Below the pieces are notes generated by a model. The model did no database searches. It was given only the letters and a program-made list of their open reading frames with translations, and was not told the origin of the DNA. From IMG/VR virus record IMGVR_UViG_3300044998_000961: 37,601 bases of DNA; one strand, given 5' to 3'. This document shows, piece after piece, positions 16,346 through 32,121 of this stretch (the first letter of the stretch is position 1; each line of letters opens with the position of its first letter). The DNA comes from a virus. The translations under genes and the position numbers were made by a program.

Positions 16346-16583
16346 TGCTCCATCCCTTCCCCTGGGGGCACGTGGCAAAATGGTTTATGCCCCATTGCTC
16401 GTTCTTGATGATTCGGATGGTGCTGGCGTCGATCGGCATTGCGGCCCCTTTGGCGGTCGATATCCACACCACCGAAGCACCGCACGATCGGCATGTGCCC
16501 CTTCGGGCTCCCACGGGGATCCGCTGCTCGCCCATTTTGGGCATGTCTGCATCCCCAGCGAACAAATCCAGTTGTTCAGTCAT
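16323..16583 (-). CDS. Small hypothetical protein with CxxC...C motif
   Basis: 86 aa. Its start overlaps the stop of the loader gene. It contains CRSCGASVVW and HFATC. No family recognised. Confidence 0.4.
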   Translation of the reverse strand: MTEQLDLFAGDADMPKMGEQRIPVGARRGTCRSCGASVVWISTAKGAAMPIDASTIRIIKNEQWGINHFATCPQGKGWSNARRNKS

Positions 16584-17419
16584 TGGCGGATCCTTCGATA
16601 GCTACTGATCGGCATCCAAACGTTGACGGCCTGGGCCAACCTATCGGCAATGCGCGGCCCGAGCAATTCATCGAGCTGATCAATATCGTGATTGCTGGTA
16701 ACCACGGTCGGGCGCTTGAGCCGCTCGTTCGTGACGCGGAACAACCGATCAGCGGCCCATGGGCTGAGCTTTTCGGCCCCAATATCGTCGAGAATGACCA
16801 GATCCGCATCAAGCACGGCGGCCATGGCCGCGTCCGGATCTGCCCCGCCTGGGCGGAGATCGTCGAGCAGGCCCGGCACGCTGCGATAGACCACTCGACG
16901 GCCGAAGCCGGCCGCGTGCAACGCGATCGCCGCTGCTAGATGCGATTTGCCCGCCCCGGGCGAGCCGTGCAAAAACACCCAGCCGATCGGATCCTGGGCG
17001 TACGTCCATGCCGTTCGGTAGGCCCTGGCGAGTTGCTGCTTCTGTGCCGCAACGGAGACTCGGCCCATCTCCCCGAGATCGAGCTCGACCAACGGGCGAT
17101 CTTGCTGGAACGTGGCAAATGTGCAATGGCTTAACCCGGCGAGCTCGTCGCGCAATGCGGCGACTCGCTGCTCGCGCTGAGCCTGGCCAGCGCGACCACA
17201 CGCGCATGCCTGCAATTTGCCGAAATCAGGATGGCCCGAAGGCACATTCCACAAAAACCACCCAGAGCCATCGCATCCACACGGCTCCGGGCCGGGACGC
17301 GCTGGGGTCAAACTAGGAAACGTTCGCGGCAAAGCGCTCCGCCTCTTCGTTGAGTTGCCGAATTCGCTCGGCGACTCGGGGATCGGCCCGAGTCCCGGCA
17401 TGCTGCTGAGATCGATCAT
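16580..17419 (-). CDS. DnaC/DnaI-like helicase loader (AAA+ ATPase) with an N-terminal Cys cluster
   Basis: Walker A is GSPGAGKSHLAAAI and Walker B is LVILDDIGAEK, followed by RLKRPTVVTSN. The N-terminal CGCDGSGW...LQACACG is a DnaI-like zinc cluster. ATG 17419 has a ggag RBS. An alternative TTG at 17311 would remove the 107-nt overlap with the upstream gene. Confidence 0.8.
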   Translation of the reverse strand: MIDLSSMPGLGPIPESPSEFGNSTKRRSALPRTFPSLTPARPGPEPCGCDGSGWFLWNVPSGHPDFGKLQACACGRAGQAQREQRVAALRDELAGLSHCTFATFQQDRPLVELDLGEMGRVSVAAQKQQLARAYRTAWTYAQDPIGWVFLHGSPGAGKSHLAAAIALHAAGFGRRVVYRSVPGLLDDLRPGGADPDAAMAAVLDADLVILDDIGAEKLSPWAADRLFRVTNERLKRPTVVTSNHDIDQLDELLGPRIADRLAQAVNVWMPISSYRRIRQ

Positions 17420-18203
17420 GGCGTATCTCCTTCGGTTGCATGCGGGACGGCTCGTGATACCAGTCCAGCATGCCGTCAACATTCAGGCTATTCGCATATT
17501 TGCGCCGCCAGGCGGCGATCGTGGCCTGCCAGCGATCGAGATCGTTGACCGGCGGCCGCTTGATGCCATTGGGCAGCGTGTAGCCCTGGGCAATGGCCGC
17601 TGCCTGCACTCGATTGGGGCGAATGCCGATCACGGCTTTATAGGCCATACACGCCGGGTGGAACTGGTTTGGATCTTTGATGATCTTTTCCGCGATGATC
17701 TTTTCCGCTGGGGGAGATGGGGCGGGGATGGGCGGATGCCCATCGCCCAAAAAAGCAATGCCCACATGATCATGATCATACGTATGATCATGATCATATA
17801 AGGGATAGTGCAGATCACTGATCTGGTGATCACTGTTTCGCTCCAGATCACTGATCTGGAGATCACTGTTTTGATGCAGATCACTGATCTGGAGATCACT
17901 GTTTTGATGCAGATCACTGATCTGGAGATCACTGATTCGCTGCTTGACCTCTTCGGGTGAGAGCCCGGTGATGATGGCATACCGGGTTGGGCGGCCGCGC
18001 CCGCCGCCGGGGGCCCACACCAGATCGCCATTCGCCCGAAGCGCTGCCACTGCTTGCCGGGCATTTCGCAGTTGGCAACGGGCCAGATGGGCGATCTGCT
18101 CGCCGCTGATCGCCACAATGCCGCGATCATCGGCTTCCATTGCCAGCACGAGCAGGATCGTACGGGCGAGTCCGGTTGCCGATGATTGATATATTCGTTT
18201 CAT
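17313..18203 (-). CDS. Replication initiator / replisome organiser (winged-helix N-terminus) carrying the iteron array inside its own coding sequence
   Basis: The wHTH-like N-terminus is ARTILLVLAMEADDRGIVAISGEQIAHLARCQLRNARQAVAALRANGDL. The middle SDLQISDLHQN repeats are encoded by the 33-bp iterons. It lies directly upstream of the loader gene and has an ATGA overlap with the methyltransferase gene. Confidence 0.6.
   Translation of the reverse strand: MKRIYQSSATGLARTILLVLAMEADDRGIVAISGEQIAHLARCQLRNARQAVAALRANGDLVWAPGGGRGRPTRYAIITGLSPEEVKQRISDLQISDLHQNSDLQISDLHQNSDLQISDLERNSDHQISDLHYPLYDHDHTYDHDHVGIAFLGDGHPPIPAPSPPAEKIIAEKIIKDPNQFHPACMAYKAVIGIRPNRVQAAAIAQGYTLPNGIKRPPVNDLDRWQATIAAWRRKYANSLNVDGMLDWYHEPSRMQPKEIRHDRSQQHAGTRADPRVAERIRQLNEEAERFAANVS
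17766..17797. repeat. Perfect 32-bp palindrome ATGATCATGATCATACGTATGATCATGATCAT (4 GATC sites) next to the iterons
   Basis: Read directly; the sequence is its own reverse complement. It encodes YDHDHTYDHDH in the initiator protein. Confidence 0.95.
17811..17942. repeat. Four contiguous 33-bp iterons (candidate replication origin)
   Basis: Units lie at 17811, 17844, 17877 and 17910: CAGATCACTGATCTGGAGATCACTGTTTTGATG. Each holds the 13-bp dyad AGATCAcTGATCT, two GATCACTG direct repeats and three GATC sites. Confidence 0.8.
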
Positions 18204-18925
18204 ACGACCACCTCAAACATGGCATGCTGCTCGACCGGCGGCGCTGGAGGCGCTGGAGGCGTTTCGACCTGGGCCAGCCGATCGAGGGCGTCGAAAATAT
18301 CGAGGCCGTCGATCTCATTCCCGACGCACACCCATCCGGGGCGTACTCGTCGGGCGAAGAGCTCAAGATATGGCCCGTCGAGCAGTTGCTCGATTCGGCT
18401 TTGAATGAGCTCAGGCTTTTGGCTGTGCCGGGTCATGGGGGCCAGCAGCGCCGCCGGATTGTCAGGGTCGAGCTCGATCGTTGCCACAACCTGGCTCACA
18501 TCCCTGCGTACGCGCCGAATTTTTTTGCGAGGGACTATTCCGATCGGCTTGCCGGGTATCTTTGGAATCCCGGTATTCACGCAGAGCCAAACATCTTCAG
18601 TATTGGCCCGCGTCCAGTAGCCAAGCCCTTGAAAAAAATCGCCCGAATCGTAGAGTTTTACCCAGGTGAAAGCTTTTGTCACGTAGCTAAACCCCCAGCG
18701 CCGCATCATGCGGTAGGTCTCGGGGAGCAACGGCGCACATACCCACAGGAACAGCACCGTACCACGGTAGCTCACCTGTTGGATGCTCGATCCAAGATCC
18801 GCAAGGCGCTCCCAGGACATGATGTCATAGTGGCCCTCGGCGCTCTTGTCGTCAATGCCGCTCGGTCGCTTCCCCCACGCCTTGAAGGGCACCGGGGGAT
18901 CGGCAATGATTACAGGGAATCGCAT
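18200..18925 (-). CDS. MT-A70 family N6-adenine DNA methyltransferase
   Basis: Motifs are VIIADPPVPFKAW (DPPW-type catalytic motif) and GYWTRANTEDVWLC. I chose ATG 18925; the ORF opens at 19072, inside the sigma gene. Confidence 0.7.
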   Translation of the reverse strand: MRFPVIIADPPVPFKAWGKRPSGIDDKSAEGHYDIMSWERLADLGSSIQQVSYRGTVLFLWVCAPLLPETYRMMRRWGFSYVTKAFTWVKLYDSGDFFQGLGYWTRANTEDVWLCVNTGIPKIPGKPIGIVPRKKIRRVRRDVSQVVATIELDPDNPAALLAPMTRHSQKPELIQSRIEQLLDGPYLELFARRVRPGWVCVGNEIDGLDIFDALDRLAQVETPPAPPAPPVEQHAMFEVVV

Positions 18926-19692
18926 GTGTAGCCCCTGACTGCTAATAGTTCGCGAATGCGAACGAAGGCGAGTTGCTCGATCTGCCGCACCCGCTGACGG
19001 GTGAGATTGAGCTCCTGCCCGATCTGATTGAGCGTGTGCGGGCCTTCCGTCCCGATGCCGAATCGCATACAAATCACCCGCTGCGAGCGCTCATCAAGGC
19101 AGCTGATCACATGGTGGATGTCGAGCGATTGCATATGCTCGACCGCCTCCTCTTCGACTGAGGCGGGGCCGGCGATAAACTCGCCGAGCGTTCGCGTATC
19201 TTCGGGCCGGGCCGGGGCATCCATCGAGAGGATCGCCCGTTCGTGCATCCGCACGGCCCGACCTACATTTTTATTTTTGAATTGTCCTTCCGGGTCAACC
19301 GGCCCACCGCTGCGCCGCTTGGCGCGACGCATCGTTTCATGCACATGTGCGGGCAAAGCGATCAGCCGATCGTTTTCCACAAACCGTTGCATCTTGTGGC
19401 GGATCCACGAATCCGCATAGGTCAAAAAATGGTGCCCGGAATTGATATCGAACTTTTCGATGGCTCTCACCAGACCGATCCATCCCTCATTGGTGAGATC
19501 TTCGATGTTGATCCCGGGGACGAGATACTTCCGCGCAACTGCGAATACATAGCGCATATGTGCCCGGGTGAGGGCGTCAAGCGCCTCGGCCTTCGCCTCG
19601 GCTGAGGCGCTCGGGTCTTGGTAGGTGGCAATATGCGCCATAATTTGCTGCTTCGGCAGCATTTCGCTAAGTTCTTGGTGTGGTATTGGCAT
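18910..19692 (-). CDS. Sigma-70 family RNA polymerase sigma factor
   Basis: Region 2 is DLTNEGWIGLVRAIEKFDINSGHHFLTYADSWIRHKMQRFV. Region 4 is LDERSQRVICMRFGI...HTLNQIGQELNLTRQRVRQIEQLAFVRIRELL. I chose ATG 19692. Confidence 0.85.
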   Translation of the reverse strand: MPIPHQELSEMLPKQQIMAHIATYQDPSASAEAKAEALDALTRAHMRYVFAVARKYLVPGINIEDLTNEGWIGLVRAIEKFDINSGHHFLTYADSWIRHKMQRFVENDRLIALPAHVHETMRRAKRRSGGPVDPEGQFKNKNVGRAVRMHERAILSMDAPARPEDTRTLGEFIAGPASVEEEAVEHMQSLDIHHVISCLDERSQRVICMRFGIGTEGPHTLNQIGQELNLTRQRVRQIEQLAFVRIRELLAVRGYTCDSL

Positions 19693-20824: not shown

Positions 20825-20915
20825 AAGTGCGGGGATGTAGGCGGGGGATCGAGTCGGTCGACTCGATCCCCCGGGCCGCCCAGCAACAGGAGCAACCACA
20901 TAGACGAGGGAAGCT

Positions 20916-21353: not shown

Positions 21354-21525
21354 TGATGATGTATGTGCACGACAGAATCATGTCTATCTTGTCGCAGCCC
21401 GCCCGCTGACCGATGAGGAGTGGGCGGCCGTTGACGCCTCATCGTGCATGATGTCGAGGATTCCCATCTCGTTTGAGATGGATGAAAAAGGGGTTGGTTC
21501 TTATTGAACCAACCCCTTTTTCCAG

Positions 21526-22350: not shown

Positions 22351-22388
22351 GTGACGGCTCAGAAGCCCAAGGGCTTCTGAGCCGTCAC
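22351..22388 (+). terminator. Perfect 18-bp stem-loop (terminator or attenuator)
   Basis: gtgacggctcagaagccc-aa-gggcttctgagccgtcac. There is no clear T-tract on the plus strand. Confidence 0.5.
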
Positions 22389-22839: not shown

Positions 22840-23232
22840 ATGAGCAAAGCAAAATGGAACCAGGCTCGCGGGGTCTGGGATCGAAAGATCAATCCCCTGC
22901 GCAAGCAGGGATTCGTCGATATCCCGCCAGGCCACCCCGACCTGACCGCCCAGGCGGCGGCGGAGGCCGCCGAGATCGACGAGAAGGCCCGCCTGAAGGC
23001 GGAGACGGACGGGTTTGTCCGCGAACTCCTCCGTCTCCTTCCATCAGAGTGGAAGGTGACGGGCCAGCAATGGCCCGATTCTTCGTACACACGGCTGTTT
23101 CTCCGCGCGCCGGACGGGCGTGATGCGATAGCCGTGATCCGCCCGTCGGGATACGCGCTGAGCACGCCCGGCGCCGTCGCGGAGCGCCTGCTGGCGGCGT
23201 ATGCCTCGGCGGCATCAATCCTGTTCGCATAG
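22840..23232 (+). CDS. Hypothetical protein
   Basis: 130 aa, starting 2 nt after the upstream stop. Confidence 0.5.
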   Translation: MSKAKWNQARGVWDRKINPLRKQGFVDIPPGHPDLTAQAAAEAAEIDEKARLKAETDGFVRELLRLLPSEWKVTGQQWPDSSYTRLFLRAPDGRDAIAVIRPSGYALSTPGAVAERLLAAYASAASILFA

Positions 23233-23279
23233 CATAAAGGAGCCGCCTCGGCCGTCGGCCGAGGCGGCTCCTTTATGCT
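23231..23279 (+). terminator. Perfect 23-bp stem-loop ending the rightward small-gene operon
   Basis: agcataaaggagccgcctcggcc-gtc-ggccgaggcggctcctttatgct. Confidence 0.65.
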
Positions 23280-23513
23280 CCCTCAGGAAGTGGCGCTTGC
23301 GTTTCGGCGGTGGTCGGGCGACCATAGATCGCCCAACACCACCGCCGACGAAGAGCATCAGGAGATCGCGCGGATCGGGCAATCGCTGCCTGCGCGATCC
23401 GCGCCGGAAGCGTCGTTCTCATCGCCCACATCCCTGGGAGGATGTGGGCGATTGCTTTCATCGCTGACGCGCTGCGGCCATTCCAGGCCGAGCGCGGCGT
23501 ACCGCACCGCTGC
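23238..23513. repeat. RHH-gene / bidirectional-terminator module, copy 1 (degenerate)
   Basis: About 275 bp aligns with 26299-26573 at an offset of about 3059-3061 bp. The RHH reading frame here has no proper start or stop. Confidence 0.85.
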
Positions 23514-23753: not shown

Positions 23754-24602
23754 TCATTCGCCTACCAGACAACTGACCGTACTGCCCAGCAACGGGCGGT
23801 AGATCGTGATCGTCTCGCCGGGTTGCGGCGCGGTCGCAGGCACCGCGCCGGCGAACTGATCTGGATGCATCAAATATTCGCATGGCATCCAGCCATGCTC
23901 CTCTCCCCACTCGTCGGCCCGAATGATAAATTGCTGCAAGGCCTCGTAGAGGCCCTCTTCGGTTTGGCGACGCAGCCAGATGACGTCGCCGTTCATCATC
24001 TGGTAGGCTTTTCCTACGCGCACGGCAGCAGCCGAGCGTTCCTTTGGCGTCAGCGGGCGCTCGACCAGGCACGTTTGTGCCCGGTGCATGAGGCGCAGCG
24101 CGGTTCGGAGATTGTCACGAACCGCCGTGCACGTTTGTTCACGGTACATTCGTTCCAGCGCGGTGCGATGCACCACGCGAGCGCCGAGATAATTGAGATC
24201 TTCGACAAAATAATCTTCGAAAGCACAGAACACTTTTACCACTTTGCCATTACTGGCATCGTGGTACAAGTCTGCCAGCGCGGACGCGCCCATTGTCCGC
24301 GCTTCGGCCTCCGCTTCCCCGATGTTGCCCGGATTGATGTTCCGGGCATACCACCAGTGACGGTCGCCCTCTGGTTGCTGCAAAAAGATGCCTGCCGCCT
24401 CGCCGGCGATCCGGCAGGCTATCTCCTGGCGCCATTCGAATGGCGCCAGGAGATCTAGCAGCCATGCGAGATCTAAGCAATCCGGGTGGTGATCCGCGAT
24501 TTCCTCGAGCGAGCGGGGCTCGTCCCCCGCCCACTCGAGAAACTCCTCAATCTCCTCTGGGCAGGCATTGTGGTTTTCTAGCCATGTTTGATCAATTTTC
24601 AT
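23754..24602 (-). CDS. MKID-family paralog P1 (long form, 282 aa), unknown function
   Basis: aaggagga RBS. It shares the N-terminal and C-terminal modules with the other family members. Confidence 0.8.
   Translation of the reverse strand: MKIDQTWLENHNACPEEIEEFLEWAGDEPRSLEEIADHHPDCLDLAWLLDLLAPFEWRQEIACRIAGEAAGIFLQQPEGDRHWWYARNINPGNIGEAEAEARTMGASALADLYHDASNGKVVKVFCAFEDYFVEDLNYLGARVVHRTALERMYREQTCTAVRDNLRTALRLMHRAQTCLVERPLTPKERSAAAVRVGKAYQMMNGDVIWLRRQTEEGLYEALQQFIIRADEWGEEHGWMPCEYLMHPDQFAGAVPATAPQPGETITIYRPLLGSTVSCLVGE
24421..24454. repeat. Perfect 34-bp palindrome inside P1
   Basis: ATCTCCTGGCGCCATTC|GAATGGCGCCAGGAGAT. It encodes LLAPFEWRQEI. Confidence 0.95.
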
Positions 24603-24668
24603 TGGTTTCCTCCTTGCCGCTTCGTGGGCGGCTGTGGCCGCCCACAGAAATGTTGAGGGCTAAATTCT

Positions 24669-25520
24669 TCATTCGCCTACCAGACAACTGACCGTACTGC
24701 CCAGCAACGGGCGGTAGATCGTGATCTCCTCGCCCGGTTGCGGCGCGGTCTCTTCGACCGCGCCGGCGAACTGATCTGGATGCATCAAATATTCGCATGG
24801 CATCCATGCATATTCGACATCCCACTCGTCGGCCCGAATGATAAATTTCTGCAAGGCCTCGTAGAGGCCCTCTTCGTTTTGGTGCCGCACCCAGAAAACG
24901 TCGTCGCCTATTAGATAGGCTTTCCCCACCCGCTCGGCTGCTGCCGAGCGCTCTTCCGGGGACAGCGGGCGCTCGACCGGGCACGTCTGCGCGTGCTCGA
25001 TGACGCGCAGCGTGGTTCGGAGATTGTCACGAATATCCGTGCGCAAACTGGCACGGTACGTTCGTCTCATCCAGATTCGGATGTTGTTATTATCCCGAAT
25101 CTCGCTATCGTCTTTTGTCTCGAGATCCTCGATAATCTCGAGCAAACCGTAGAGAACATCCTCCACGTCGCCATTACTGGCATCGTGGTACAAGTCCGCC
25201 AGCGTCAACGCGCCTATTTTCCGCGCTTCTGCCTCCGCTTCTGCGATGTTGCCCGGATTGATGTTCCAGGCAAACCGCTCGTATCCCACGGATTGCCGAA
25301 AAAAGATGCCTGCCGCATCGCCGGCGAGGCGGCAGGCTATGTCCATTCGAATATCGAATGGAGCGACCTTGTCTATGATCCATGCGATATCGAAGGAATC
25401 CGGGTGGTGCTCCGCAATCTCCTCCAGTGAGCGGGGTTCGTTCCCCGCCCAATCGAGAAACCGCACAATTCCTTCTAGGTACGCATTGTGTTGTTTGAGC
25501 CAGGTTCGATCGATTTTCAT
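24669..25520 (-). CDS. MKID-family paralog P2 (long form, 283 aa), unknown function
   Basis: First gene behind the promoter-leader cassette at 25521-25630. It has the family N- and C-modules. Confidence 0.8.
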   Translation of the reverse strand: MKIDRTWLKQHNAYLEGIVRFLDWAGNEPRSLEEIAEHHPDSFDIAWIIDKVAPFDIRMDIACRLAGDAAGIFFRQSVGYERFAWNINPGNIAEAEAEARKIGALTLADLYHDASNGDVEDVLYGLLEIIEDLETKDDSEIRDNNNIRIWMRRTYRASLRTDIRDNLRTTLRVIEHAQTCPVERPLSPEERSAAAERVGKAYLIGDDVFWVRHQNEEGLYEALQKFIIRADEWDVEYAWMPCEYLMHPDQFAGAVEETAPQPGEEITIYRPLLGSTVSCLVGE

Positions 25521-25590
25521 TGGTTTCCTCCTTGCCGCGCGATAGCGCGCGTGTGGCCCCCACGAGGGGGTGTTTGAATATCATGACGCA

Positions 25591-25619
25591 ATTATAGCAC
25601 AATCATAATGCAATGTCAA
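25591..25619 (-). promoter_or_regulatory. Perfect-consensus sigma-70 promoter (cassette copy a) driving P2 and P1
   Basis: Minus strand reads TTGACA (25619-25614), 17 nt, TATAAT (25596-25591). Confidence 0.8.
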
Positions 25620-25677
25620 CGGGTATTTTTATGACAAAACTGTCATCAAATAGTTCGATCAATTATCAAATTGCCTA

Positions 25678-25705
25678 TTGATCATAGCGAAAGTTGTGGT
25701 ATGAT
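25678..25705 (+). promoter_or_regulatory. Sigma-70 promoter with extended -10, driving the small acidic-protein / RHH operon
   Basis: TTGATC (25678-25683), 16 nt ending in TGG, TATGAT (25700-25705). Confidence 0.7.
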
Positions 25706-25709
25706 GTTA

Positions 25710-25731
25710 TTATCAATAATCCGATTGATAA
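25710..25731. promoter_or_regulatory. Operator-like inverted repeat overlapping the predicted transcription start
   Basis: TTATCAAT-aatccg-ATTGATAA begins 5 nt after the -10. A related pair, TTATCAA-8 nt-TTGATCA (25663-25684), overlaps the -35. Confidence 0.5.
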
Positions 25732-25746
25732 TGAAAGGAACCCACA

Positions 25747-25989
25747 ATGACCACCGTAACCATCCGCATCACCCGCGAACGCTTGGCGGCCATGGACGAC
25801 CACGAGATGGTCGTCTATGGAACCCCGAACACGTGGGAGCCCTATTGGGCCTCACGGCCAAGCTTTATGTATGACAAGTGCCTCGCAACGCCACGCGATT
25901 TCTATGAGTTTTACGATCTCGATCGTGAAGCCTGTGACGATGACGAGGATGAGATTCTCGAGTTGACGGTTGTCGTTGATGAGGAATAA
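25747..25989 (+). CDS. Small, strongly acidic hypothetical protein (80 aa)
   Basis: About 21 D/E against 7 K/R by my count. The C-terminus is REACDDDEDEILELTVVVDEE. First gene after the 25678 promoter. Confidence 0.55.
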   Translation: MTTVTIRITRERLAAMDDHEMVVYGTPNTWEPYWASRPSFMYDKCLATPRDFYEFYDLDREACDDDEDEILELTVVVDEE

Positions 25990-26049
25990 CGTCGATATGT
26001 CATGGAAGCGAGGGGGGGATACCCCCTCGCTTCCGCTAGGAGCAAAACC

Positions 26050-26271
26050 ATGAAATTGAACGTGAATCGCTATTACGATCTTACCTGGAATGCGGAGGAT
26101 CAAGAGGGGAAATGGACAAGCGATGATGAAGGCTGTCTCGTGCTCCTCTGCCAGGAGCACGGTGACTTGCTGGAAGACGCCGGCGAAACCCAGTGGGCCG
26201 GCAACGGCGACTATGGCCACCTGTGTCGCTGTGAGTATCCCGGCTGCCTCATCAATAATGGTGTCAAATGA
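26050..26271 (+). CDS. Small acidic Cys-rich hypothetical protein (73 aa)
   Basis: ATG 26050 has an aggag RBS. It has six Cys (CLVLLC, CRCEYPGC) and a net negative charge. ATGA overlap with the RHH gene. Confidence 0.55.
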   Translation: MKLNVNRYYDLTWNAEDQEGKWTSDDEGCLVLLCQEHGDLLEDAGETQWAGNGDYGHLCRCEYPGCLINNGVK

Positions 26272-26474
26272 CCGGGAATAAGCGCAGTGGCAATCGAGGG
26301 AGCCGCCGTGGCCGCCGGCTGCGGCGCTCCTTCACGCTCCCTCAGGAAGTGGCGCTTGCTTTTCGCTTGTGGTGTTGGGCGATCTATGGTCGCCCAACGA
26401 CACCCGAAGAAGAGCAGCAGGAGATCGCGCGGATCGTACAGGCAGCGATTGCCCAATCCGCGCCGGAAGCATAG
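26268..26474 (+). CDS. Ribbon-helix-helix (CopG/Arc-like) DNA-binding protein
   Basis: A basic N-terminus is followed by RSFTLPQEVALAFRLW (strand plus helix A) and PEEEQQEIARIVQAAIAQ (helix B). A terminator follows immediately. Confidence 0.55.
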   Translation: MTGNKRSGNRGSRRGRRLRRSFTLPQEVALAFRLWCWAIYGRPTTPEEEQQEIARIVQAAIAQSAPEA

Positions 26475-26573
26475 TCATCATCGCCCACATCCTCTCAGGG
26501 ATGTGGGCGATTTCTTTCATCGCTGACGCGCTGCGGCCATTCCAGGTCGAGCGCGGCGTACCGTACCGCTGCT
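26299..26573. repeat. RHH-gene / bidirectional-terminator module, copy 2 (the only copy with an intact RHH ORF)
   Basis: Aligns with 23238-23513. Its 3' part also recurs at 30551-30641 and 31899-32010. Confidence 0.85.
26482..26518 (+). terminator. Intrinsic terminator after the RHH gene
   Basis: cgcccacatcc-tctcag-ggatgtgggcg followed by atttctttc. Confidence 0.75.
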
Positions 26574-26640
26574 TCGCATTGCGGCGCTTCATCCCACCGC
26601 GAAAGCGTGTGGGCTTTCGCGCCAAGGTTTCTGTAAAAGA

Positions 26641-26670
26641 ATGCCACCGGCTCGCTTGAGCCGGTGGCAT
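26641..26670. terminator. Bidirectional stem-loop terminator downstream of the tRNA
   Basis: atgccaccggctc-gctt-gagccggtggcat. It has T-rich tails on both strands (ttgatttg on plus, tcttttac on minus). Confidence 0.7.
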
Positions 26671-26679
26671 TTGATTTGA

Positions 26680-26752
26680 AACGAGAGACGGGGTTCGAAC
26701 CCGCGACATGCACCTTGGTAAGGTGGTGCTCTACCAACTGAGCTACTCCCGC
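26680..26752 (-). tRNA. tRNA-Gly-like gene with the atypical anticodon ACC
   Basis: The minus strand reads GCGGGAG TA GCTC AGTTGGTA GAGC A CCACC TTACCAA GGTGC ATGTC GCGGG TTCGAAC CCCGT CTCTCGT T. The cloverleaf has U8, A14, G18G19, U33 and a T-loop TTCGAAC. The body is close to the E. coli tRNA-Gly(GCC) I recall. Deviations are A34, a C27-C43 mismatch, G1-U72 and G4-U69 pairs, and no encoded CCA. Confidence 0.7.
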
Positions 26753-26761
26753 AATGCCATT

Positions 26762-26790
26762 AGTATAGCATAGCTCGGTTGGGAAAGCAA
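26762..26790 (-). promoter_or_regulatory. Dedicated sigma-70-type promoter for the tRNA
   Basis: Minus strand reads TTGCTT (26790-26785), 17 nt, TATACT (26767-26762). The -10 ends 9 nt before the tRNA 5' end. Confidence 0.6.
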
Positions 26791-26891
26791 ATCGTTAGCT
26801 CGAAAACCCTTTCGGCAGGTGGATCTGCCGATCGGGGCAGGCTATCATGGTGCGGCGCACCTGAACAAATGCCAGGTGCGCCGCACTATCC

Positions 26892-27344
26892 CTATGCTTC
26901 GGGCACGCTTCGCAACGCCTCGCGGAACATTGTGTCGATTTGCTCCGGCACGCGGCCGTCTCTTGTGAAATAATTTACGTATGTGAACATACAGTTTCTT
27001 ATTCTGCCAGCGCTGGCAGAATCACCAAGCATTTTGAGGCCTTCCGTCAGGCATTTCCACTTGACGCCGGCTCTGGCGAGCCGCATATAATCTTTTTCGC
27101 CTACCGGCGGCCAATCGTACCGATTGAATTCGCCGGTCGCCGCGTTGACCATATCGCAGGCCAACGCCATTCGAATGTCGAATGGACAAAGGAGATCTAT
27201 CAGCCATGCGAGATCTTTCGCATCCGGGTAGTGATCCGCGATTTCCTCGAGTGAGCGGGGCTGCTCCCCCGCCCACTCGACAAACCGCGCAATCCTCTCT
27301 GGGCAGGCATTGTGGCTTTTTAGCCACGCTACATCGATTTTCAT
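26892..27344 (-). CDS. MKID-family paralog P3 (short form, 150 aa), unknown function
   Basis: ATG 27344 lies behind cassette copy b. It has the family N-module up to the palindrome, then unrelated sequence ending IDTMFREALRSVPEA. Confidence 0.75.
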   Translation of the reverse strand: MKIDVAWLKSHNACPERIARFVEWAGEQPRSLEEIADHYPDAKDLAWLIDLLCPFDIRMALACDMVNAATGEFNRYDWPPVGEKDYMRLARAGVKWKCLTEGLKMLGDSASAGRIRNCMFTYVNYFTRDGRVPEQIDTMFREALRSVPEA

Positions 27345-27413
27345 GTCATTCCTCCTTGCCGCGCGATAGCGCGCGTGTGGCCCCCACGAGGGGGTGTCTG
27401 ATATCATGACGCA

Positions 27414-27442
27414 ATTATAGCACAATCATAATTCAATGTCAA
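27414..27442 (-). promoter_or_regulatory. Perfect-consensus sigma-70 promoter (cassette copy b) driving P3
   Basis: Minus strand reads TTGACA (27442-27437), 17 nt, TATAAT (27419-27414). Confidence 0.8.
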
Positions 27443-27520
27443 TGGGTATTTTTTTACGTCGATATGTAATGGAAGCGAGGGGGGATACCCCCTCGCTTCG
27501 TTGTCCAGATGCGCCGCACC

Positions 27521-28000
27521 CTATGCTTTGGGCAGAGCAACGCTCCGCAACGCCTCGCGGAACATTGTGTCGATATGCTCCGGCACGTCTTTGTCAAATT
27601 TGCTGACGAATGTCAACAATGTCTCGAGGACGCGTCCTCGGGACGCTTCCTCGTAGACATAGATGAGATCCTCCGACGATGCTCGCCAATTGAGCGCAAA
27701 TTCCAGGGCTTCCCCGATGTTGCCCGGATTGATGTTCCGGGCAAACCACCAGTGGCGGTAGCCGTAGCCTGGTCGCCGCGAAAAGATGCCTGCCGCCTCG
27801 CCGGCGATCTGGCAGGTTACGGCCATTCGATATTCGAATGGAGCGACCTTTTCTATGAGCCATGCGAGATCGAAGGAATTCGCGTGGTGCTCCGCGATTT
27901 CCTCGAGCGAGCGGGGCTCGTCCCCCGCCCACTCAACAAACCGCGCAATCACCTCTGGGCACGCATCGTGGCTTTTTAGCCACGCTACATCGATTTTCAT
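27521..28000 (-). CDS. MKID-family paralog P4 (short form, 159 aa), unknown function
   Basis: ATG 28000 has an aaggagga RBS after the intercistronic hairpin at 28022-28043. It ends IDTMFREALRSVALPKA. Confidence 0.75.
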   Translation of the reverse strand: MKIDVAWLKSHDACPEVIARFVEWAGDEPRSLEEIAEHHANSFDLAWLIEKVAPFEYRMAVTCQIAGEAAGIFSRRPGYGYRHWWFARNINPGNIGEALEFALNWRASSEDLIYVYEEASRGRVLETLLTFVSKFDKDVPEHIDTMFREALRSVALPKA

Positions 28001-28057
28001 TCTTTTCCTCCTTGCCGCTTCGTGGGCGGCCACAGCCGCCCACAGAAATGTTGAGGG

Positions 28058-28870
28058 CTAAATTCCTCCTTCGCCTACCAAACAATTGAACGTCCTGCCC
28101 AGCAACGGGCGGTAGATCGTGACCATCTCGCCGGGTTGCGGCGCGGTCGAAGAGACCGCGCCGGCGAACTGATCTGGATGCATCAAATATTCGCATGGTT
28201 CCCATGCATATTCGACACCCCACTCGTCGGCAATCATAATAAATCGCCGCAAGGCCTCGTAGAGGCCCTCTTCGGTTTGGCGACGCAGCCAGATGACGTC
28301 GCCGTTCATCATCTGGTAGGCTTTTCCTACGCGCTCGGCTGCTGCCGCGCGTTCCTTTGGCGTCAGCGCCCGCTCGACCGGGCACGTTTGTGCCCGGTGC
28401 ATGAGTCGCAGTGCGCGTCGCAGCGCGGTTCGGAGATTGTCACGCACCTCGCGAGCGTCGATTGAATCGAGATCCACAAAATCTTCGAAAGCACAGAGCA
28501 CTTTCACCACGTTGCCATTACTGGCATCGTGGTACAAGTCCGCCAGCGCGGACGCTTTCATCTGCCGCGCTTCTGCCTCCGCTTCTGCGATGTTGCCCGG
28601 ATTGATGTTGAAGGCAAACCGCGCGTGGCGGTCGCCCTCTGGTTGCTGCAAAAAGATGCCTGCCGCCTCGCCGGCGACCTGGCAACCTAAGTCCATTCGA
28701 ATGTCGAATGGACAAAGGAGATCTAGCAGCCATGCGAGATCTTTCGCATTCGGATGGTACATAGCAATCTCCTCCAGCGAGCGGGGCTGCTCCCCCGCCC
28801 ACTCGGAAAATCGCGCAACCCCCTCTGGGCAGGCATCGTGTTGTTTGAGCCAGGTTTGATCGATCTTCAT
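28058..28870 (-). CDS. MKID-family paralog P5 (long form, 270 aa), unknown function
   Basis: It has the family N- and C-modules and follows the 28885..29193 gene in the same operon. Confidence 0.8.
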   Translation of the reverse strand: MKIDQTWLKQHDACPEGVARFSEWAGEQPRSLEEIAMYHPNAKDLAWLLDLLCPFDIRMDLGCQVAGEAAGIFLQQPEGDRHARFAFNINPGNIAEAEAEARQMKASALADLYHDASNGNVVKVLCAFEDFVDLDSIDAREVRDNLRTALRRALRLMHRAQTCPVERALTPKERAAAAERVGKAYQMMNGDVIWLRRQTEEGLYEALRRFIMIADEWGVEYAWEPCEYLMHPDQFAGAVSSTAPQPGEMVTIYRPLLGRTFNCLVGEGGI

Positions 28871-28884
28871 TCTTTTCCCCTTCC

Positions 28885-29193
28885 CTAAATTGAGCGCTCA
28901 ATAATTTCGCGCTCAATGATGTCTATAGCCAAGCTTTGACGCGGATCTTTTCTGTAATGAATGAGCAATTTTGCTAATTCACTGATTGATGCTTGTTCTA
29001 CAATAGAAACAAGCGAACCGTCTTTTGTTGGGTTTTTCCCCCGCTCCACGAGCGGAGAAGACTCCGCCGGAATTTCGATTTCCTGAAGAGCTCTATCAAC
29101 AATTTCGCATTCAATTGCCCGCAATCTTGCGAGACGATCTGGGTGCGAGCTATTCCACCAGTAGTCAAGTTGTTTGCCAAGCTCCTTGATCAT
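28885..29193 (-). CDS. Hypothetical protein (102 aa) in a visibly lower-GC segment
   Basis: ATG 29193 has an aaggagga RBS directly behind cassette copy c. Unrelated to the MKID family. AT-rich compared with its neighbours. Confidence 0.55.
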   Translation of the reverse strand: MIKELGKQLDYWWNSSHPDRLARLRAIECEIVDRALQEIEIPAESSPLVERGKNPTKDGSLVSIVEQASISELAKLLIHYRKDPRQSLAIDIIEREIIERSI

Positions 29194-29261
29194 TGGTTCC
29201 TCCTTGCCGCGCGATAGTGCGCGGGTGGCCCCCACGAGGGGGTGTCTGATATCATGACGCA

Positions 29262-29290
29262 ATTATAGCACAATCATGATGCAATGTCAA
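29262..29290 (-). promoter_or_regulatory. Perfect-consensus sigma-70 promoter (cassette copy c) driving 28885..29193, P5 and P4
   Basis: Minus strand reads TTGACA (29290-29285), 17 nt, TATAAT (29267-29262). Confidence 0.8.
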
Positions 29291-29440
29291 TGGGTATTTT
29301 TTTACGTCGATATGTAATGGAAGCGAGGGGGGTATCCCCCCTCGCTTCGTTGTCCAGGCGCCGCACCCTATGCTTTGGGCAGAGCAACGCTCCGCTCATG
29401 CCCGCGCGGCGGCCGCCGGCCGCCGCGCGGCAGATGCCCT

Positions 29441-30229
29441 TCATTCGCCTACAATGCAACTGACCGTACCGCCCAGCAACGGGCGGTAGATCGTGATCTC
29501 CTCGCCCGGTTGCGGCGCGGTCGAAGAGACCGCGCCGACGAACTGATCTGGATGCATCAAATATTCGCATGGCTCCCATGCATATTCGACCCCCCACTCG
29601 TCGGCGATATACGCCGACTTCCAAAGAACCTCGTAGAGGCCCTCTTCGGTTTGGCGACGTACCCAGAAAACGTCGCCGTCTAGCTCATAGGCTTTTCCCA
29701 CCCGCGCGGCAGCAGCCGCGCGTTCCGCTGGCGTCAGCGCCCGCTCGACCGGGCACGTCTGCGCGTGCTCGATGAGGCGCAGCGCGGTTCGGAGATTGTC
29801 ACGAACCACGCGAGCGCCGATTGACTCGAGATCCACAAAATCTTCAAAAGCACAGAACACTTTTACCACTTTGCCCTTAGCTGCATCGTGGTACAAGTCT
29901 GCCAGCGCGGACGCTCCCATTGTCCGCGCGTCGGACTCCGCTTCCCCGATGTTGCCCGGATTGATGTTGAAGACATACCGCGCGTGGCGGTCGCCCTCTG
30001 GTTGCCGCGAAAAGATCGCGGCCGCCTCGCCGGCGATCCGGCAGGCTATCTCCTGGCGCCATTCGAATGGCGCCAGGAGATCTAGCAGCCATGCGAGATC
30101 TTTCGCATCCGGGTGGTACATAGCAATCTTCTCGAGCGAGCGGGGAGTCTCCCCCGCCCACTCGACAAACCGCGCAATCCCCTCTGGGCAGGCGTTTTGG
30201 TTTTGTAGCCAGGTTCGATCGATCTTCAT
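29441..30229 (-). CDS. MKID-family paralog P6 (long form, 262 aa), unknown function
   Basis: ATG 30229 lies behind cassette copy d. It has the family N- and C-modules and contains the 34-bp palindrome at 30048-30081. Confidence 0.8.
   Translation of the reverse strand: MKIDRTWLQNQNACPEGIARFVEWAGETPRSLEKIAMYHPDAKDLAWLLDLLAPFEWRQEIACRIAGEAAAIFSRQPEGDRHARYVFNINPGNIGEAESDARTMGASALADLYHDAAKGKVVKVFCAFEDFVDLESIGARVVRDNLRTALRLIEHAQTCPVERALTPAERAAAAARVGKAYELDGDVFWVRRQTEEGLYEVLWKSAYIADEWGVEYAWEPCEYLMHPDQFVGAVSSTAPQPGEEITIYRPLLGGTVSCIVGE
30048..30081. repeat. Perfect 34-bp palindrome inside P6 (same sequence as 24421-24454)
   Basis: ATCTCCTGGCGCCATTC|GAATGGCGCCAGGAGAT. Confidence 0.95.
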
Positions 30230-30299: not shown

Positions 30300-30328
30300 A
30301 TTATAGCACAATCATAATGCAATGTCAA
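30300..30328 (-). promoter_or_regulatory. Perfect-consensus sigma-70 promoter (cassette copy d) driving P6
   Basis: Minus strand reads TTGACA (30328-30323), 17 nt, TATAAT (30305-30300). Confidence 0.8.
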
Positions 30329-30386
30329 CGGGTATTTTTTTTACGTCGATATGTAATGGAAGCGAGGGGGTATCCCCCCTCGCTTC

Positions 30387-30536
30387 GTTGTCCAGATGCG
30401 CCGCACCCTATGCTTTGGGCAGAGCAACGCTCCGCTCATGCCCGCGCGGCGGCCGAGACCGACGCGCGGCAGATGCCCTTCATTCGCCTACCAAACAACT
30501 GACCGTACCGCCCAGCAACGGGCGGTAGATCGTGAA
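30387..30536 (-). pseudogene. Truncated seventh MKID-family cassette (3' end only)
   Basis: 30480-30535 encodes ...TIYRPLLGGTVSCLVGE plus a stop, with no upstream body. 30387-30436 matches the last codons and stop of short form P4. The same 3' flank follows the intact P6. Confidence 0.7.
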
Positions 30537-30550
30537 ATAATAATAGATGT

Positions 30551-30641
30551 AGGAGATCGCGCGGATCGCGCAATTGCCTCCTGCCCAATCCGCGCCGGAA
30601 GCGGAGTCATCATCGCCCACATCCTCTCAGGGATGTGGGCG
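30551..30641. repeat. RHH 3'-end / terminator module, copy 3 (remnant) just upstream of the Dam-like gene
   Basis: ggagatcgcgcggatcg...ccgcgccggaagc...cgcccacatcctctcagggatgtgggcg. It has no start or stop for the RHH frame. Confidence 0.85.
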
Positions 30642-30655
30642 TGAGATAAAAATGT

Positions 30656-31852
30656 ATGCTGATGGAGATAATTATGAGTCTATCAACCTATCAAAAATCG
30701 ATGTTTCCGTATTTCGGTGGCAAATCCTTGGCAGCGCCGCTTGTCTGGTCATTGCTTGGCGATCCTGCGCACTATGTTGAGCCTTTTTTTGGCAGCGGCG
30801 CGGTGCTGCTGTTTCGCCCGCATCCAGCAAATAGATCGAATTTTTCTGAAACGGTCAATGATTTCGACGGATTTATCGCCAATTTTTGGCGAGCTATGCA
30901 ATATGATGCGCAAGCTACCGTCGAATTTGCTTCGTGGCCGGTCGTCGAGGCTGAGCTGCACGCGCGGCATATTGCTATTATCCAATGGATGCGCGACGGC
31001 AATGCGGAACGGTTGGCTGGCGATGTGCAATATTATGATGCGCGGATTGCAGGGTATTGGTTGTACGGAATTTGCGCCTGGATCGGCTCTGGTTGGGGCC
31101 ACGAGCAGAGCGGCCCCTGGTGGCCTGATGCTGACGGTCGTCTGGTCAAGCGTTCGGGCAATTCAGGCGTGACTCGAAAACTACCACATGTGAGCGCCGA
31201 TGGTCAGGGCGTGCATCACTGCAAGGCACGTGAGCCAGGAGTGACTCGACAACTACCACGTGTGGGCGCCGATGGTCAGGGCGTCCATCACTGCAAGGCA
31301 CGTGAGCCAGGCGTGACGCGAAAACTACCACATCAGGATGAGGATTTAGCTGATATCATCGAGGCTGATTACGCGGCCTCAGACGAATACCATCCTATGA
31401 CGATGCCCGAAATTCGCCGGTGGGCCCATTGGCTCCAAGCGCGTATGCGTCATGTGCGCGTGGCGAACGGTGATTGGCAGCGGATTTGTAGCTCCAGCGT
31501 ATTGCGCCCAATGCCTAGGGGAGGCAAGCCCCATGTGTCGGGCATCTTCCTTGATCCGCCGTATAAACACAGCGAGAGATCAGCGCAATTGTATCGAGAG
31601 GATCAAGACATTGCATCTGACGTACGCGAATGGTGCCTACAAAATGGCAACAATTCTCAATATCGGATAGTGCTGGCGGGGTTCGCCGGCGAGGGACACG
31701 AAATATTAGAAAAAAATGGCTGGAGCGTGTATGAATGGTACGAACACCAATTGTTCAGGAGCGGCTATGGGCACCAGCAGCATCGAGAACGTCTGTGGGC
31801 GTCGCCGCATTGCTTGCTTCCAATGTTGCCGCTGGATGCGCTCTGGGAATAA
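30656..31852 (+). CDS. Dam-like (D12 class) N6-adenine DNA methyltransferase with an internal tandem repeat
   Basis: Motifs are FPYFGGK, YVEPFFGSGAV (AdoMet motif) and IFLDPPYKHS (DPPY catalytic motif). The likely start is ATG 30674, with GGAG 6 nt upstream. Lower GC than its surroundings. Confidence 0.8.
   Translation: MLMEIIMSLSTYQKSMFPYFGGKSLAAPLVWSLLGDPAHYVEPFFGSGAVLLFRPHPANRSNFSETVNDFDGFIANFWRAMQYDAQATVEFASWPVVEAELHARHIAIIQWMRDGNAERLAGDVQYYDARIAGYWLYGICAWIGSGWGHEQSGPWWPDADGRLVKRSGNSGVTRKLPHVSADGQGVHHCKAREPGVTRQLPRVGADGQGVHHCKAREPGVTRKLPHQDEDLADIIEADYAASDEYHPMTMPEIRRWAHWLQARMRHVRVANGDWQRICSSSVLRPMPRGGKPHVSGIFLDPPYKHSERSAQLYREDQDIASDVREWCLQNGNNSQYRIVLAGFAGEGHEILEKNGWSVYEWYEHQLFRSGYGHQQHRERLWASPHCLLPMLPLDALWE
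31166..31333 (+). repeat. In-frame 72-bp tandem repeat, 2.3 copies, inside the Dam-like gene
   Basis: Units start at 31166, 31238 and 31310 (partial). They encode GVTRKLPHVSADGQGVHHCKAREP, then GVTRQLPRVGADGQGVHHCKAREP, then GVTRKLPH. Confidence 0.9.
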
Positions 31853-31898: not shown

Positions 31899-32010
31899 CG
31901 AGATCGCGCGGATCGTGCAGGAGGCAATTGCGCGATCCGCGCCGGAAGCGTCGTCATCATCGCCCACATCCTCTCAGGGATGTGGGCGCGTTTTTTCATC
32001 GCTGACGCGC
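31899..32010. repeat. RHH 3'-end / terminator module, copy 4 (remnant) just downstream of the Dam-like gene
   Basis: cgagatcgcgcggatcg...ccgcgccggaagcgtcgtcatcatcgcccacatcctctcagggatgtgggcg...catcgctgacgcgc. Confidence 0.85.
31961..31997 (+). terminator. Intrinsic terminator after the Dam-like gene
   Basis: cgcccacatcc-tctcag-ggatgtgggcg followed by cgttttttc. Confidence 0.8.
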
Positions 32011-32121
32011 AAAGGATCATCCCTGATCGCCGGACTCCACCCCAGAGCGATCAGGGATACCCTACTATAGTGCGAATGTCAAACGCCATCCAGATCAGCG
32101 TTTGACTCGTATGCCATACTG

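Follow-up and report, generated by a model that had tools for sequence, protein, structure and literature searches.

The virus record IMGVR_UViG_3300044998_000961 of IMG/VR, analysed here as one window of 37,601 nucleotides (nt), is a tailed-phage genome with six paralogous genes, P1 to P6, all on the minus strand between 23.7 and 30.3 kb. These genes carry many more perfect inverted repeats than their protein sequences and codon usage account for; between copies, hairpin loops are found exactly inverted and hairpin arms are changed in a compensatory manner. We consider it probable that the repeats are both products and substrates of template switching by DNA polymerase (quasi-palindrome mutagenesis) in a fast-evolving, mosaic family of orphan phage genes. 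A preliminary description of the window had singled out a DNA dyad shared by all six genes at codon 54, which it took for a site under nucleic-acid constraint and for a recombination junction. This dyad is one of about 11 inverted-repeat sites in the family and is not unique. The six genes, defined as open reading frames (ORFs) and by alignment, are the following.

P1: 23754..24602, minus strand, 282 amino acids, long type; 4 perfect hairpins against 0.49 expected
P2: 24669..25520, minus strand, 283 amino acids, long type; 5 hairpins against 0.48 expected
P3: 26892..27344, minus strand, 150 amino acids, short type
P4: 27521..28000, minus strand, 159 amino acids, short type
P5: 28058..28870, minus strand, 270 amino acids, long type
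P6: 29441..30229, minus strand, 262 amino acids, long type; 6 hairpins against 0.46 expected

A perfect hairpin was counted, in coding orientation, where a stem of at least 8 bp enclosed a loop of at most 9 nt; the null was generated by shuffling synonymous codons within each gene, which keeps both the protein and the codon usage, and mirror repeats served as the control for reverse-complement symmetry. Each paralog has 2–6 perfect hairpins, compared to 0.1–0.5 in its shuffles (P <= 0.006 for each gene), and the six coding sequences (CDSs) together contain 23, with 2.0 expected, an approximately 11-fold excess. Mirror repeats are not enriched in the same sequences (2 observed, 0.7 expected), and the excess is thus specific to reverse-complement symmetry and surpasses what protein sequence and codon usage provide. 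Homologues encoded on other contigs behave alike (4–6 hairpins against 0.4–0.6 expected), whereas most other phage genes of the window match their own shuffles. In a codon alignment of 11 distinct family members, the approximately 11 sites cover 40% of the ungapped columns. When whole CDSs are folded as RNA, their z-scores relative to synonymous shuffles range from -4.7 to -10.7, with four control genes at -3.3 to -3.7; about 70% of the excess folding energy is strand-symmetric, that is, present on the antisense strand too, which points to Watson–Crick symmetry in the DNA. A scan of k-mers in search of reverse-complement copies close to minority alleles, controlled with plain-reverse and complement words, proved uninformative because low-complexity self-overlap inflates the 'reverse' control, and the shuffle test with its mirror-repeat control was used in its place.

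The codon-54 dyad, referred to below as site 1, takes two forms and has a further imperfect palindrome next to it in several copies.

Site 1, type A, P1: 24421..24454, codons 50-61, DLLAPFEWRQEI; single-stranded DNA (ssDNA) hairpin of -19.1 kcal/mol, z = -7.4
Site 1, type A, P6: 30048..30081, the same 34-mer, within an 81-nt tract identical to P1
Site 1, type B, P2: 25342..25362, 9-bp arms, coding strand TCCATTCGA-TAT-TCGAATGGA
Site 1, type B, P3: 27167..27185, 8-bp arms, coding-strand loop CAT
Site 1, type B, P4: 27823..27841, 8-bp arms, coding-strand loop ATA
Site 1, type B, P5: 28691..28713, 10-bp arms, loop CAT
Adjacent imperfect 30-bp palindrome (ACRIAGEAAG): 24390..24419 (P1), also 25308-25337, 27789-27816 and 28661-28684

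All six dyads lie at codons 54–59, at the coordinates given in the preliminary description, and on the coding (minus) strand their core begins with CCA (Pro54) and TTC (Phe55); only the extent of the P5 copy needed correction, each side being one base longer than reported. The type A palindromes of P1 and P6 are, as had been claimed, 34 bp long, perfect and identical to each other (ATCTCCTGGCGCCATTC followed directly by GAATGGCGCCAGGAGAT, 17/17 pairs). Type B, found in P2–P5, has the form CCATTCGA-N3-TCGAATGG, with 9 pairs in P2 and 10 in P5; its arms use the same CCA, TTC and CGA codons in all copies while the loop and flanks vary, and the encoded peptides do differ between copies (PFEWRQE, PFDIRMD/A, PFEYRMA). 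Within the stem, the 8-bp core never varies and only the outer pair 158/180 covaries, being C:G in the relative L004b and G:C in P5 and the relative L006. The word CCATTCGA occurs 14 times in the window, compared to 3.0 expected, and 12 of these 14 are site-1 arms, so the dyads are not due to chance; a scan of IMG/VR for CCATTCGA-N3-TCGAATGG returned 6 matches, all in unrelated contexts and hence attributable to chance. The ssDNA folds at site 1 have z-scores of -3.7 to -8.3, and 100-nt RNA folds around it reach -5 to -6 in P1, P2, P5 and P6, with -2.2 in P4 and -1.5 in P3. An AGATCT...AGATCT stem precedes the dyad in the P1 and P5 folds, and the imperfect palindrome, GCCTGCCG..TCGCC/GGCGA..CGGCAGGC, directly follows it in P1, P2, P4 and P5; three consecutive hairpins occupy codons 44–70 (z = -5 to -6). 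The site-1 dyad is kept in 10 of the 11 close family members, and L005, a member from another sample, carries the same 34-mer as P1 and P6, which shows that the palindrome is not an assembly artefact and has spread by short-tract conversion.

Further hairpins recur within the paralogs, between them and in the surrounding DNA, and these copies differ in informative ways.

C-terminal in-CDS hairpin, P2: 24741..24765, CGGCGCGGTC-N5-GACCGCGCCG; plus-strand loop TCTTC, coding GAAGA (Glu-Glu)
C-terminal hairpin, P5: 28139..28163, loop inverted; plus-strand GAAGA, coding TCTTC (Ser-Ser)
C-terminal hairpin, P6: 29513-29537, inverted loop as in P5
C-terminal hairpin, P1: 23826-23850, 9-bp stem, 7-nt loop
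'RSAAAER' in-CDS hairpin: 24931..24950 (P2) and 29703-29722 (P6), loop alleles AGCA/TGCT
Intercistronic hairpin upstream of P1: 24624..24645, GTGGGCGGC-TGTG-GCCGCCCAC
Intercistronic hairpin upstream of P4: 28022..28043, same arms, loop CACA (exact inversion)
Terminator-like hairpin: 27472..27499, GAAGCGAGGGGG-GATA-CCCCCTCGCTTC; further copies at 26004-26034 and 29320-29348
Terminator-like hairpin copy: 30359-30386, loop TATC (inverted)
Hairpin with 13-bp stem: 23421..23452, loop CTGGGA
Copies of the 13-bp-stem hairpin: 26480-26511, 30614-30641 and 31961-31988, loop TCTCAG

At site 1, the loop is TAT (Asp-Ile) in P2 and in the relatives L004a and L004b, and ATA (Glu-Tyr) in P4, the two being exact reverse complements; over 21 nt, the L004a segment is the exact reverse complement of that of P4, with 5 differences between them. 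The coding-strand loop of the C-terminal hairpin reads TCTTC in P5, P6 and L005, and GAAGA in P2 and L006. Upstream of P1 and P4, the exchange of TGTG for CACA accounts for the only 4 differences within 62 otherwise identical nt. Two weaker cases, in which the inversion comes down to two bases, are the GATA/TATC loops of the terminator-like hairpin and the AGCA or TGCT found between identical arms of the RSAAAER hairpin, and the CTGGGA and TCTCAG loops are related by reverse complementation plus one substitution (5/6 positions). The inverted segments measure 3–7 nt between arms of 8–13 bp, and among the repeated hairpins of the window we found no multi-base, equal-length loop difference outside the reverse-complement relation.

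The arms vary in a similarly concerted way. One pair of arm alleles, GCGCGGAC/GTCCGCGC and GCGTCAAC/GTTGACGC, differs by three compensatory pairs, and the RSAAAER arms exchange a T:A for a G:C pair across the family, with both single-mismatch intermediates present. The alleles ending in ...MHRAQTCPV and ...IEHAQTCPV each pair with conserved flanking codons, in each case into a different perfect hairpin. Perfect inverted repeats that coincide with a multinucleotide difference in one arm or in the spacer are found at site 1 (type A versus type B) and at columns 315-350, 556-590, 616-635 and 804-828. Between a P4/L004b-like sequence and type A itself, 8 nt contain 5 substitutions (TATCGAATG to TGGCGCCAG; Tyr-Arg-Met to Trp-Arg-Gln), all of which perfect the pairing of the palindrome. 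A simple explanation for site 1 would be that all copies inherited a conserved peptide, P-F-[DE]-x-R-M, whose codons form a dyad by coincidence. Pro54, Phe55 and Arg58 are indeed invariant in the close family, and the type B arms could be shared by descent or gene conversion alone; nevertheless, this leaves unexplained the perfect 34-bp palindrome, the excess over synonymous shuffles, the exact loop inversions and the compensatory arms. Already refuted by the shuffle tests, it scarcely merits further consideration.

These footprints are those that template switching would leave. According to the Ripley model of template-switch, or quasi-palindrome, mutagenesis, the nascent strand would fold back or jump to the complementary arm, copy a few bases there and return. 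The spacer between perfect arms could thereby be exactly inverted, imperfect arms could be homogenised or extended to perfection, and several seemingly compensatory changes could arise in a single step, each event rewriting 2–5 adjacent residues with length and frame unchanged. In yeast genes, switching between short inverted repeats produces arm homogenisation, spacer inversion and replacement of up to five neighbouring amino acids (PMC8604942), and perfect RNA hairpins both arise and persist through the same process, with loop inversions and multiple compensatory changes among its outcomes (PMC8794818). Template switching is a general source of mutation clusters, with short switches known in human (PMC5453318), and quasi-palindrome hotspots are found in E. 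coli and yeast (PMC7202029). Furthermore, repair synthesis during gene conversion is approximately 1000 times more mutagenic than normal replication, and quasi-palindrome mutations belong to the errors that characterise it (bioRxiv 10.1101/2023.08.09.552703). The mosaicism of the family and its template-switch footprints could therefore have a common explanation in frequent conversion between the six paralogs. From these patterns, we infer the polymerase mechanism and the order of its steps, and suppose that conversion-repair synthesis and/or very high transcription may raise the rate of switching.

The 34-mer offers an example of how such steps might follow one another. It may have started from the ancestral CCATTCGA-N3-TCGAATGG repeat common to the close family, in which a flip of the loop from TAT to ATA (Asp-Ile to Glu-Tyr) would have placed a new TTCGAA centre 3.5 nt upstream of the type B centre. 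ATCTC upstream and GAGAT downstream of this centre pre-exist in some alleles, namely in the P5-type N-terminus and in the L004b-type 'GAG ATA'. One arm-homogenising switch at the new centre would then have converted TAT-CGA-ATG into TGG-CGC-CAG (YRM to WRQ), and short-tract gene conversion would have spread the completed palindrome between P1 and P6.

Outside the closest relatives, the dyad does not persist. In the close homologue L001 (A-P-F-K-S-R-R-E-I), there is only a 7/8 stem with a 7-nt loop (z = 0.05) and no significant dyad is present. Two more distant family members, P0013 (on L002/L003, a phage contig that also encodes terminase and endolysin) and P0014 (on L014), keep D-I-R-Q and have no dyad at those codons, the site-1 folds of L002 and L014 having z-scores of -1.2 and -1.5; another relative, P0010, encodes PFKSRMEI and is known from its protein only. 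The absence of the dyad from L001, L002 and L014 indicates that it turns over and is not conserved. It bears on the proposal, made in the preliminary description, that a constraint acts here on DNA or RNA and not on protein. Symmetry at the level of nucleic acid is borne out, given that synonymous shuffles contain about 11 times fewer inverted repeats and that the arm codons are fixed. That it amounts to constraint is doubtful, because L001 keeps P-F-x-x-R, and L002 and L014 keep D-I-R-Q, all of them without a dyad; homologues of this kind, which the preliminary description itself had named as evidence to the contrary, thus exist at least in part. The dyad thus belongs to one shallow clade, and the making and remaking of palindromes by a mutational process fits better than the conservation of a single site.

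The same comparison speaks against site 1 being an operator or another recognition site, whether for a dimeric DNA-binding protein, a restriction/modification system or a homing nuclease. The dyad does contain TTCGAA, TCGA, GGCGCC and AGATCT, its CCATTCGA..TCGAATGG core is invariant across six distinct type B sequences, and 8 of the 12 TTCGAA and 9 of the 12 AGATCT sites of the window fall in the paralogs. However, outside these genes CCATTCGA occurs as two single half-sites only, none of them near promoters; types A and B differ in centre and spacing and L001 has no dyad, all of which is incompatible with one fixed binding geometry; and the other ten or so inverted-repeat sites are unrelated in sequence. 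We thus regard a recognition site as highly improbable. Restriction sites as such were likewise considered and discarded, since the 6-bp palindromes concentrated in the family merely re-express the inverted-repeat excess.

Several points weigh against template switching as formulated above. The mosaicism of the family destroys its tree, so that ancestral states are not inferable and both the direction of the changes and their origin in single events are assumed. Nucleotide diversity is equal inside and outside the inverted-repeat sites (pi of 0.191 and 0.193, respectively), and hence the chief source of variation is not switching; perfect stems at a pi of about 0.19 call either for frequent re-perfection by switching or for selection for pairing. 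The implied ratio of switches to point substitutions lies orders of magnitude above rough figures for yeast and human, and requires either a factor that increases it or selective retention of the hairpins. In 5 of the 6 genes, the sense strand shows a slightly greater folding excess than the antisense strand, which, together with the extreme whole-CDS folding, leaves room for selection at the RNA level. Finally, the close relatives all derive from a few related metagenome samples, and independent lineages are few.

Considering these points, the hairpins might instead be selected structures, either mRNA stem-loops that stabilise these very strongly transcribed messages, serve their processing (RNase III-type) or slow their translation, or functional DNA hairpins or cruciforms. 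The whole-CDS minimum free energy z-scores, two to three times those of control genes, the larger sense-strand excess, the three consecutive hairpins at codons 44–70, the perfect site-1 stems in 10 of 11 close relatives in spite of the diversity of the family, and the existence of compensatory arm alleles are all in keeping with this explanation. So is a hairpin with an 8-bp stem, an 8-nt loop and two covarying inner pairs (AC:GT versus GT:AC), which P2 (24987-25010) and the distant homologue P0013 (2816-2839 of L002, CDS nt 445-468 of the P0013 gene) have at the same L-R-x4-A-Q position; it is the only hairpin position common to both sides of the deep split in the family. On the other hand, site 1 is not kept in L001, L002 and L014, and the family's alleles differ in register and centre, which is turnover and not conservation. 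Imperfect copies show T.T, G.A, G.G and A.G mismatches, whereas selection on RNA would be expected to leave G.U wobbles, and an Rfam search gave no family match. Moreover, selection on stems does not predict exact inversions of loops, and most of the excess energy is strand-symmetric. Selected structure is thus a possible explanation, although we hold it to be clearly the less likely one. It partly overlaps with template switching, which would then at most supply variants for selection, and the two are not mutually exclusive.

The family is extremely mosaic. Among its nine long members, the four-gamete test detects at least 57 recombination intervals (Rm = 57) over about 890 columns, or approximately one per 15 nt, and pairwise identical tracts of at least 30 nt begin and end all along the gene. 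With so many intervals among nine sequences, and with outgroups (L002 and L014) that have diverged too far at the sites concerned, no usable tree can be obtained. This mosaicism is also the background against which the palindrome has to be judged as a recombination signal or junction exchanging N-terminal and downstream modules between paralogs, the role assigned to it in the preliminary description. The underlying observation is accurate: P3 and P5 are identical except for one base over 57 nt up to the very 3' end of the right arm, beyond which the two genes diverge. Column 146 as a start, and columns 153-155 and 178 as ends, recur among several pairwise identity tracts. Yet the 34-column palindrome overlaps 3 four-gamete intervals where the mean 34-column window overlaps 2.96 and 63% of windows have at least 3, and for the type B core the count is 1 and the mean 1.97. 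A dozen places other than the palindrome show equal clustering of tract ends, and the junction at which P4 passes into its short-type C-terminus lies about 130 nt downstream. A Pfam scan of 40 ORFs of the window found no recombinase, invertase, integrase or reverse-transcriptase domain. With breakpoints spread this evenly and the P3/P5 junction being one among dozens, the recombination-junction model is largely refuted by the breakpoint map, and we consider it very unlikely.

Relatives of the encoded proteins are confined to a few metagenome contigs. Neither Pfam nor PHROGs contains a family matching the paralogs, the sole Pfam match at E <= 1, DUF2149, being spurious; megablast of the 6.6-kb region against GenBank phages returned no match, and protein-pattern scans of IMG/VR and of JGI metagenome contigs returned no relatives. 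A word-indexed search of 5.8 billion proteins recovered 13 family members only, and an exhaustive HMMER search of 1.84 billion cluster representatives recovered three clusters only; a second search seeded with the distant homologue pair added no further members, and the relatives found all trace back to a few JGI metagenome samples that are themselves related. The AlphaFold model has an all-alpha N-terminal domain (residues 1–134) with a predicted local distance difference test score of about 83, and a C-terminal half below 50. Foldseek comparison of a paralog model yielded nothing in the PDB and sub-threshold matches only in BFVD, of which the best, an 'Imm-5-like' phage protein (E = 0.37, probability 0.94, template modelling scores 0.40/0.51), is weak and serves as a lead only; an Imm5-like immunity-protein fold was not adopted for the family, as no sequence or fold match was significant. 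The mean pairwise pN/pS ratio within the family is 0.69, indicating that these genes are coding but fast-evolving.

The phage encodes an HK97-type capsid protein, a portal, a large terminase, a head–tail connector, a D12-class adenine methyltransferase, an IstB/DnaC-like loader and a sigma factor (18910-19692, minus strand). Its paralogs form four transcription units, separated by the repeated terminator-like hairpins, and each unit has upstream a sigma-70 promoter that matches the consensus at 12/12 positions and carries a TG extension.

Promoter of P2-P1: 25591..25619, minus strand, 12/12 consensus with TG extension
Identical promoters, minus strand: 27414-27442 (P3), 29262-29290 (orf102-P5-P4) and 30300-30328 (P6)

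Between P2, on the minus strand, and small plus-strand genes, the divergent control region at 25650-25750 contains nested AT-rich inverted repeats (ATTATCAAT-N6-ATTGATAAT and others) and looks like an operator. In the middle of the array lies a gene for tRNA-Gly (26680-26752, minus strand) whose anticodon ACC, with A at position 34, is unusual for bacteria. A truncated remnant of a seventh paralog, comprising only its last 19 or so codons (...YRPLLGGTVS.LVGE), is found at about 30481-30537 on the minus strand, directly upstream of the methyltransferase gene and adjoining a repeat block that recurs at 29390-29460. Four copies of a module of about 90 nt (23395-23480, 26454-26540, 30590-30645 and 31940-32030) end small plus-strand ORFs and contain the hairpin ATCGCCCACATCC-N6-GGATGTGGGCGAT.

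The methyltransferase gene (30656-31852) is Dam-like, and GATC occurs 498 times in the 37.6-kb window, with about 135 expected on a rough estimate from base composition; TCGA occurs 345 times. One gene outside the family is also rich in hairpins: the ORF at 14915-15844 (minus strand), with a C-terminal helix-turn-helix, has 6 perfect hairpins against 0.57 expected, especially at 15268-15353, including repeated GCTGCGCA/TGCGCAGC units. The loader gene (16580-17482) is nearby, and the ORF may be an initiator gene that contains an origin with iterons. Long perfect palindromes outside the paralog family lie at 17766-17797, 23231-23279, 20842-20873, 21484-21522 and 22351-22388; they include a 32-bp GATC-rich palindrome (ATGATCATGATCAT...), another whose 24-bp arms are separated by 1 nt, located where the 22840-23232 gene ends, and several terminator-like stems of 15–18 bp.

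Systems in which phages alter the protein of a gene family by inversion or templated rewriting of a short, repeat-bounded segment, such as Hin/Gin/Cin, shufflons and diversity-generating retroelements (DGRs), invite comparison. One could imagine that the in-frame repeats act as an enzyme-free device of diversification, in which spacer toggles and arm-copy converters would rewrite 2–5 residues without frameshift or stop and, together with short-tract conversion between the six strongly promoted copies, would continually yield combinatorial variants of a host-interaction protein; such a recombinase- and reverse-transcriptase-free analogue of shufflons and DGRs would be kept by second-order selection on the repeats. 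We regard this idea as speculative and rather improbable. A site-specific invertase switch or shufflon in the strict sense was rejected, because the segments of 3–7 nt between 8–13-bp arms are too short for recombinase synapsis and the Pfam scan of the 40 ORFs revealed no invertase or integrase. Likewise, a DGR does not apply, given the absence of a reverse-transcriptase domain from the same scan and the nature of the variation, which consists of reverse-complement blocks and not of adenine-specific A-to-N changes.

Closer in scale are the minute hairpin-associated inversions which Kelchner and Wendel are reported to have described in chloroplast non-coding DNA in 1996. There, loops of a few nt also flip between perfect stems, recurrently and independently of their flanks; unlike those inversions, which occur in non-coding organelle spacers, half of the phage cases lie in CDSs and change protein. 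Mutagenic repair by gene conversion in mosaic multigene families shares with this phage the presence of paralogous donors in one genome, very short tracts and changes that perfect palindromes. It differs in that neither a break-inducing nuclease nor recombination genes could be identified in the window, and the link between conversion and switching is one that we infer.

The nearest likeness is to the known template-switch mutation systems, which also show multinucleotide differences at perfect inverted repeats, homogenised or extended arms, exact inversions of spacers, the joint replacement of several neighbouring amino acids and multi-base 'compensatory' changes. What sets the phage family apart is density, with about 11 sites and at least 4 clear inversions in a 0.85-kb gene family and its leaders and terminators; the yeast study reported 39 affected genes across its strain set (PMC8604942). 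Furthermore, the phage case concerns a natural multigene family with short-tract mosaicism, and it includes a 34-bp palindrome with zero spacer inside an intact ORF. If the rate of switching is truly as high as the clean loop inversions imply, natural rates of quasi-palindrome mutagenesis could readily be measured in this phage, which could also show whether phages exploit switching to diversify accessory proteins. The comparison also calls for caution, in that stems, compensatory pairs and seemingly conserved dyads in coding DNA can be mutational in origin and need not denote an RNA structure, an operator or a recombination site. Set beside these systems, the family would represent a known process in an unusually dense natural example, with loops flipped, arms perfected, a 34-bp palindrome within an ORF and whole blocks of amino acids changed.

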